Shown: positions 56,801 to 59,800 of the stretch, piece by piece
Numbering within the stretch: the stretch's first letter is position 1
How the letters are laid out: each line of letters begins with the position of its first letter
Assembly: GCF_013167455.1 (NCBI RefSeq)
Contig: NZ_CP038328.1
Source of the DNA: Escherichia coli O157:H7
GTDB taxonomy: Bacteria > Pseudomonadota > Gammaproteobacteria > Enterobacterales > Enterobacteriaceae
Length of the DNA: 64,000 bases
Strand: one strand, 5' to 3'
Made by a program: the position numbers

Positions 56801-59800
56801 GGCTCCGGCAATGGGGCTGAACGCCTTCTTTGCGTTCGTGGTCGTGGGGGCGATGGGTATCTCCTGGCAGACCGGGATGGGCGCGATATTCTGGGGCGCA
56901 ATTGGGCTATTTTTGCTCACGCTATTTCGTATCCGGTACTGGATGATCTCCAACATTCCATTAAGTTTACGTATTGGTATCACCAGCGGAATCGGATTAT
57001 TTATCGCCTTAATGGGATTAAAAAATACTGGCGTTATTGTCGCCAATAAAGACACTCTGGTGATGATTGGCGATTTAAGTTCTCACGGCGTGTTGTTAGG
57101 TATTTTAGGGTTTTTTATTATAACCGTGTTGTCATCACGTCATTTTCATGCCGCGGTGCTTGTTTCTATTGTGGTGACGTCTTGCTGTGGATTATTTTTC
57201 GGTGATGTTCATTTTAGCGGCGTCTATTCCATTCCGCCTGATATTAGCGGCGTCATTGGTGAAGTAGATTTGAGCGGCGCGTTAACACTTGAACTCGCCG
57301 GTATCATTTTCTCCTTTATGCTGATCAACCTATTTGATTCATCAGGAACATTAATTGGTGTAACTGATAAAGCTGGCTTAATAGATAGTAACGGTAAATT
57401 CCCCAATATGAATAAGGCGCTATATGTTGATAGCGTAGTTCGGTGGCGGGCGCGTTTATCGGCACCTCGTCTGTTACCGCCTATATTGAAAGTACTTCTG
57501 GTGTGGCAGTCGGTGGTCGCACGGGGCTGACTGCGGTTGTGGTCGGCGTTATGTTCCTGTTGGTTATGTTCTTCTCACCGCTGGTGGCGATGGTTCCTCC
57601 TTACGCAACCGCCGGAGCGTTAATCTTTGTTGGCGTGTTGATGACCTCAAGTCTGGCGCGCGTTAACTGGGATGATTTTACCGAATCGGTGCCTGCGTTT
57701 GTTACCACGGTGATGATGCCCTTTACTTTCTCGATCACCGAAGGGATTGCACTTGGCTTTATGTCGTACTGCATCATGAAAGTGTGCACCGGGCGCTGGC
57801 GCGATCTGAACCTGTGTGTGGTGGTGGTCGCAGCTCTGTTTGCACTGAAGATTATTCTGGTGGATTAGTAACTGGCGAGGGTTTCCAGATATCATGAGTT
57901 CTGATTACGCAGGAGAACTCATGATCTGGATAATGCTCGCCACGCTGGCGGTAGTGTTTGTGGTTGGTTTTCGGGTGCTGACATCCGGGGCCAGAAAAGC
58001 GATTCGCCGTCTCAGCGATCGGCTGAATATCGATGTCGTACCCGTGGAGTCGATGGTCGATCAAATGGGAAAGTCAGCCGGTGACGAATTTTTACGTTAT
58101 TTGCATCGTCCGGATGAGTCGCACCTGCAAAACGCCGCGCAGGTGTTGCTCATCTGGCAAATTGTCATTGTCGATGGTAGCGAACAGAACCTGCTGCAAT
58201 GGCATCGGATTTTACAAAAAGCCCGCCTTGCCGCTCCCATTACTGATGCTCAGGTCAGGCTGGCGCTGGGTTTTCTGCGCGAAACCGAACCTGAAATGCA
58301 GGATATTAATGCTTTTCAGATGCGCTATAACGCGTTCTTTCAGCCTGCCGAGGGCGTTCACTGGCTGCATTAAAACCGCTTCGTCTTATCAGCCTACAGA
58401 CCGCGCCTGACCTGTAGGGTGGATAAGGCGTTCACGCCGCATCCGGTATCGGAACTGACAGTAGGTGAACGCATTATCTACGTTCTATTTACAGCAGCAC
58501 CTCCAACCCGTGTTTTTGCACAATGCTGAGCAGTTTTAATGAAATGCCATTGGGGCGTTTAGCGCCACTTTCCCATTTTTGTACAGTTGAAACGCTGGTA
58601 TTGAGATAGTGAGCGAAGACGGGCTGACTCACTTTTAATTTTTCCCGCAGTGCTTTTATCTCAACAGGTTGTAAGTCTTGCACGCTGGTCAGGCAGGCTT
58701 TGTCAAAAGTACGCATCGTTTCAGCAGAAATAGCATTGACGCTGGACAATCCAGCCGCTGCGCTGTGAATAGCCTCAAATGCAGGACTTTTAAATTTAGT
58801 TTTTGCAGTCATAGCAGATCTCTGTCAGTTCTTTAGTGTTAATCATTGCTGTTAGTTGGGCTTTCGTCAGGAAGGCATAATGCTTTGCAATTTCACGAAA
58901 CCCAGCCAGTTCCTGACTATTGATGTTCGACATATCCTGTTTTGCATATAAAAACGTGTAAAACCAATTGCTTACCCCTTTCGCCAGAATAATTGCACGC
59001 TCACGATTTTGGTGAAGGCGCTTTTTAAAAACGCCACCGCCAAGTGCATCAGCTTTACCTTGTTCTGTTTCTAAAATGGCCCGGCACAACTCTTCATCTG
59101 TTATTGCATGAGACCTGGCTTCCCTTGCAAACCATTTGGTTTTAAACACGCGTATATCGTTGAGGTCCTGTTATTAAAGTATATCACCAAGTGCAATACT
59201 TTATCCCTTGTTCCCAACACAATCGCGAAAATACATATCACCTTGTCCTATGATTTTTATTTCTTCGAGCAGCCTCGAGCTTTTCCCACAACACCGTAAA
59301 AGTTGCAAAAACGTTAAATGCGTCACACATTTCAATGTTAAAGTGGTCGGCTTTTCCCCTGAAACATGCCACGGGTAACACCATGAGTGAATTTATTGCC
59401 GAAAACCGCGGCGCGGATGCCATCACCCGACCGAACTGGTCAGCCGTTTTCTCGGTGGCGTTTTGCGTCGCCTGTCTGATTATCGTTGAGTTTTTGCCTG
59501 TCAGTTTGTTGACGCCAATGGCCCAGGATTTAGGCATTTCGGAAGGGGTTGCCGGGCAATCGGTGACCGTGACCGCCTTTGTGGCAATGTTTGCCAGTTT
59601 GTTTATTACCCAGACAATTCAGGCCACTGACCGCCGCTACGTTGTTATTTTGTTTGCCGTTTTGCTGACGCTCTCCTGCTTGCTGGTTTCCTTTGCTAAC
59701 TCATTCAGTTTGCTTTTAATCGGTCGTGCCTGTCTGGGGCTGGCGCTGGGCGGGTTCTGGGCGATGTCGGCGTCGCTGACCATGCGTCTGGTGCCGCCGC

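Follow-up and report, generated by a model that had tools for sequence, protein, structure and literature searches.

Papakostas et al. 2013 (PMC3873542) name YicO (AdeQ) and PurP (AdeP) in their title as adenine transporters of Escherichia coli K-12. AdeQ, encoded by b3664, is an AzgA-like member of the NCS2/NAT permease family, and used as a query it recovers the solved plant adenine/guanine permeases AZG1 and AZG2 with E-values of 1.5e-60 and 1e-48. The AzgA-like fold comprises 14 transmembrane segments (TMS), of which TMS1-4 and 8-11 form the core and TMS5-7 and 12-14 the gate, and a conserved GTSSVTAYIES motif is assigned to TMS10 and to the site of substrate binding in these transporters (PMC11527162). 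A TMS10 glutamate of the fungal homologue AzgA, E394, has been proposed to contact the substrate (PMC11527162). The glutamate of the AYIES element is E319 in AdeQ and E318 in AdeP. D267 and E318 of PurP were reportedly found irreplaceable by Papakostas and colleagues in 2013, a residue numbering that fits E318 of AdeP. In K-12, deleting yicO did not by itself alter sensitivity to purine analogues (PMC3809563).

In this study, we examine the adeQ locus in a 64,000-nucleotide stretch of contig NZ_CP038328.1 of an E. coli O157:H7 genome (RefSeq assembly GCF_013167455.1), referred to throughout as the window. The gene occupies positions 56535 to 57868 on the plus strand, limits that follow from the PGAP entry "adeQ, frameshifted" for the identical allele in O157:H7, O145, and O55:H7 genomes and from alignment to K-12 b3664, and it measures 1334 nt; intact adeQ has 1335 nt, or 444 codons plus the stop. 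Its identity as the adeQ orthologue is established by position and by sequence, as it lies between adeD and yicN in the K-12, O157:H7, O145, and O55:H7 records alike and is near-identical to b3664. The orthologous K-12 locus has the same neighbors, uhpT, adeD, adeQ, yicN, and nepI. In the window the order is uhpT, adeD, adeQ, yicN, a RelE/ParE-type toxin-antitoxin pair, nepI, yicS, nlpA, yicL, and the right edge of the LEE. The adjoining adenine deaminase gene adeD (ade/yicP; 54594 to 56360, minus strand, 588 aa) is intact and divergently transcribed from adeQ. The intact paralogous adenine permease gene, adeP (purP/yieG; 445 aa), is located in the same window at 2138 to 3475 on the plus strand. 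The adeQ region matches many complete O157:H7 and O145 chromosomes of E. coli with 100% identity over 1.5 kb, and over its final 50 kb the window is 99.97% identical to O157:H7 strain PV15-279.

Several features in the vicinity of adeQ were observed in passing. The gap between yicN and nepI, which is about 210 bp long in K-12 and has nothing annotated in it there, holds a RelE/ParE-family toxin gene overlapped by a gene for a helix-turn-helix antitoxin (58489-58812 and 58796-59149, both on the minus strand), and both genes also occur in the O157:H7, O145, and O55:H7 records and in AR_0067. Adjoining yicL, where K-12 has setC, is a remnant of an MFS transporter gene (about 62985-63158), which is annotated as incomplete with an internal stop in PV15-279 and CB9615. 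The remnant is followed by a gene for an SdiA-regulated domain protein (63894-64000) that runs off the end of the window and belongs to the right-hand end of the LEE. The LEE boundary thus lies just some 6 kb from adeQ, as does the end of the LEE-flanking segment.

Two plus-strand open reading frames cover adeQ in the window, at 56457-57530 and 57443-57868, both as delineated in the initial annotation. The first of these coordinates overstates the 5' end of the gene: GTG 56457 is an in-frame upstream codon that lies 26 codons before ATG 56535, the start annotated in the K-12 and O157 records. We take the latter, on which the PGAP and K-12 annotations agree, as the true start of adeQ. The two frames share a single permease domain between them. 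Within the PF00860 (Xan_ur_permease) profile, positions 3-278 are accounted for by the first frame (90.1 bits) and positions 279-387 by the second (53.5 bits), against a cutoff of 27 bits, and the same domain runs unbroken from 3 to 387 in intact K-12 AdeQ. Since the split is contiguous across both frames, the reading frames are not a chance pair but two pieces of one permease. Scores above the curated threshold also place this permease in the NCS2/NAT family, where it belongs to the AzgA-like branch; in NCBIfam, neither fragment was matched.

The nature of the lesion was apparent from comparison with intact alleles. A MAFFT alignment of the window adeQ with the intact genes of K-12 MG1655 (b3664) and AR_0067 contained 33 substitutions and exactly one gap, which falls between 57436 and 57437, where the intact GAT AGC GTC AGT TCG is represented by GAT AGC GT- AGT TCG. 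The frame is thus lost after YVDSV(301), the residues at which the initial annotation had put the break, and within the interval 57420-57450 that it gave; what is missing is the third position of the Val301 codon, GTC AGT (Val301-Ser302) having become GT AGT. The lost C is a single base between T and A and stands outside any homopolymer. These observations correct one element of the initial annotation, by which the missing base was an A in a run reading gtaagt. In a search of 5,426 complete E. coli genomes, a 62-mer repaired with A had no exact match, whereas the same 62-mer repaired with C was matched exactly in 260 genomes and seeded alignments in 4,459; the ancestral base is therefore C. 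The proposal that adding an A restores a gene of 444 codons does give the right protein, because GTA and GTC both encode valine and either repair yields the same 444-codon product, but it gives the wrong ancestral DNA.

Translation from ATG 56535 predicts a truncated AdeQ of 331 aa (56535 to 57530, plus strand), consisting of 301 native residues and a 30-aa out-of-frame tail, VRWRARLSAPRLLPPILKVLLVWQSVVARG, that terminates at the stop codon at 57528-57530. Residues 302-444, which K-12 AdeQ possesses and this product lacks, are stranded in the other frame, at 57437 to 57868 on the plus strand. They include GTSSVTAYIESTSGVAVGGRTGLTA, the best-conserved stretch in comparison with AZG1 and AZG2. 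No single frame of the allele encodes a complete 14-TMS polypeptide bearing the TMS10 motif, as AYIES with E319 and everything downstream of it are out of frame. Because a product without TMS10-14 cannot form the transporter fold, the truncated AdeQ is predicted, from its sequence, to be almost certainly inactive as a permease.

The deletion is not peculiar to the genome from which the window was taken. An exact 61-mer spanning it was found in 330 of the 5,426 genomes; among the matches listed, the carriers comprise O157:H7, O145:H28, and others, isolated from human, cattle, water, and food sources, and the non-carriers all span 62 bases at the deletion site. Not one base of the whole 1334-nt allele differs among the window, O157:H7 PV15-279, O145 RM9872, and O55:H7 CB9615. 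The gene is called "frameshifted" by RefSeq/PGAP in all three of the latter records, those that were checked (pseudogene loci include, for example, ECpv15279_RS24555, I3Y_RS23100, and G2583_RS22945), and the window allele differs in nothing from these annotated pseudogenes. A 1502-nt query repaired with C matched no genome at 100%, and its best matches, at 99.9%, were all carriers of the deletion; thus, neither an intact copy nor a revertant of this allele is present among the genomes sampled. At least 99% identity over 1.5 kb was seen in 342 genomes, 12 of which do not have the exact 61-mer; these 12 could include near relatives in which the gene is intact, or carriers in which a SNP lies close to the deletion. 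More broadly, at least 80% of the adeQ region is kept in 5,386 of the 5,426 genomes, and only one inactivating adeQ event was observed. The lesion therefore disrupts a gene whose orthologues are intact elsewhere, reproducibly across independent genomes, as is expected of a frameshift fixed in a lineage. The O145:H28 allele may be shared by descent, or it may have been acquired by recombination of the LEE-flanking segment.

Aside from the one missing base, adeQ shows no sign of decay. No stops, further indels, or IS element were found in the rest of the gene, and the absence of any other lesion implies that the pseudogene is young. Once repaired, the product departs from K-12 AdeQ at just 4 of 444 residues (V123I, G285S, I353M, and I390V), though the genes differ at 33 nucleotides, and this disproportion indicates that adeQ was under purifying selection until recently. 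The paralogous AdeP is 74% identical to the repaired AdeQ over the full length; both contain PF00860 and share the motifs NLFDSSGT, YVDS, and AYIES. Unlike AdeQ, AdeP is intact, and of the two it is presumably the only one that still imports adenine in this lineage.

Together, these data argue that the O157:H7/O55:H7/O145:H28 lineage of E. coli has inherited adeQ vertically as a genuine pseudogene, a reading of the sequences to which we assign a probability of about 95%. The course of events that we propose begins with deletion of a single C at the third position of the Val301 codon, which shifted the frame and would leave a product of native residues 1-301 followed by 30 unrelated ones. Such a protein would no longer act as an adenine/H+ symporter, and adenine uptake in the lineage would be left to AdeP. 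The inactivation was recent in evolutionary terms, as the undecayed remainder of the gene shows, and, because the function would be redundant, was most likely fixed by drift. Of the two possibilities put forward in the initial annotation, a real pseudogene with purine uptake left to adeP or a homopolymer-type sequencing error, it is the first that is borne out, by the 330 independently assembled complete genomes carrying the deletion, the "frameshifted" calls in the three RefSeq records checked, and the intact adeP. The lesion is in fact already known, inasmuch as RefSeq annotates it as a pseudogene in those three records, and it needs no new mechanism. A literature search on yicO/adeQ together with O157 or pseudogene returned no paper that discusses it.

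Fixation by drift is not the only way in which a lineage can come to carry a deletion of this kind, and the loss of adeQ might itself have been selected, either because it limits uptake of adenine or of toxic purine analogues in the niche or because it alters expression of adeD or yicN. Consistent with selection, the sampled members of the lineage are fixed for the lesion, without revertants among them, in a gene that is otherwise almost universally kept (at least 80% of the region in 5,386 of 5,426 genomes). Drift or hitch-hiking would equally be expected to fix such a change in a clonal lineage, however, and the single inactivating event provides no evidence of convergence. Moreover, the intact AdeP would still import adenine, and the K-12 yicO deletion described above was without effect on purine-analogue sensitivity by itself. 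We therefore regard selection for the loss as unlikely. The more specific form of this idea is that selection favored the knockout in the common ancestor of O55:H7, O157:H7, and O145:H28, as a change that defines the lineage and adapts its purine uptake to the bovine or human gut, or that it was carried along with the LEE-flanking segment; this we consider rather improbable.

Another possibility is that the frame break is bypassed and function retained, whether by programmed +1 frameshifting or transcriptional slippage that would give full-length AdeQ, or by assembly of the two reading frames' products as a split permease. Some transporters do tolerate being split into two polypeptides, and the undecayed state of the rest of adeQ could be explained by continued function, but it is explained equally by recent origin. 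The sequence at the break, AGC GTA GTT CGG, has no slippery run, in-frame stop, or homopolymer such as is found at known +1 frameshift or slippage sites. Nor is the shift conserved among homologues, as programmed recoding would lead one to expect; it is a lineage-specific lesion, with no shift in K-12, in AR_0067, or in the genomes that match the C-repaired 62-mer. Independent translation of the downstream frame meets with similar difficulties. Its first possible start is GTG 57443. The 18 nt that precede this codon contain nothing resembling a Shine-Dalgarno sequence, and the upstream frame does not reach its stop until 87 nt further on, which precludes translational coupling. Finally, the break is situated inside the most conserved core motif, adjoining TMS10, and not in an inter-domain loop. 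Programmed frameshifting and a split gene were accordingly rejected, on the lack of a slippery site, the lack of a Shine-Dalgarno sequence, and the interruption of a conserved core motif, and retention of function by such a route appears very improbable.

Weakest of all, and in our view scarcely credible, is that the missing base is a homopolymer-type sequencing or assembly error in this one genome and adeQ really intact: single-base indels are the commonest assembly error, and four homopolymers elsewhere in PV15-279 depart from their length in the window by one base each (at window positions 47014, 47068, 48644, and 48689), but an error is rejected because the deletion is lineage-wide (330 complete genomes, and all three of the whole alleles compared, from O157:H7, O145, and O55:H7) and took out a solitary C, with T on one side and A on the other, that belonged to no run, while the C-repaired 1502-nt query found the intact form of the allele in no genome and PV15-279, despite its homopolymer differences elsewhere, has the adeQ sequence of the other carriers.

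Those homopolymer differences lie in a separate part of the window, an island of three hypothetical genes at about 46200-49500, between ilvN and uhpA, that is absent from K-12. Within it, each of four A/T homopolymer runs has one base fewer in PV15-279 than in the window, and the PV15-279 copy of a 367-aa reading frame (window 48333-49436) is annotated as frameshifted. The four differences look like errors private to the PV15-279 assembly and not real variation, because many other O157:H7 genomes share the version seen in the window at 100% identity.

The importance of the adeQ lesion as a vertically inherited pseudogene should not be overstated, as it has little bearing beyond bookkeeping and raises no new question. 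It does mean that the O157:H7/O55:H7/O145:H28 lineage has one intact member, AdeP, of the AdeP/AdeQ pair of adenine permeases. A single intact permease is of relevance to metabolic models of these pathogens and to predictions of their sensitivity to purine analogues, and the deletion itself, GTCAGT to GTAGT, could serve as a simple marker of the lineage.
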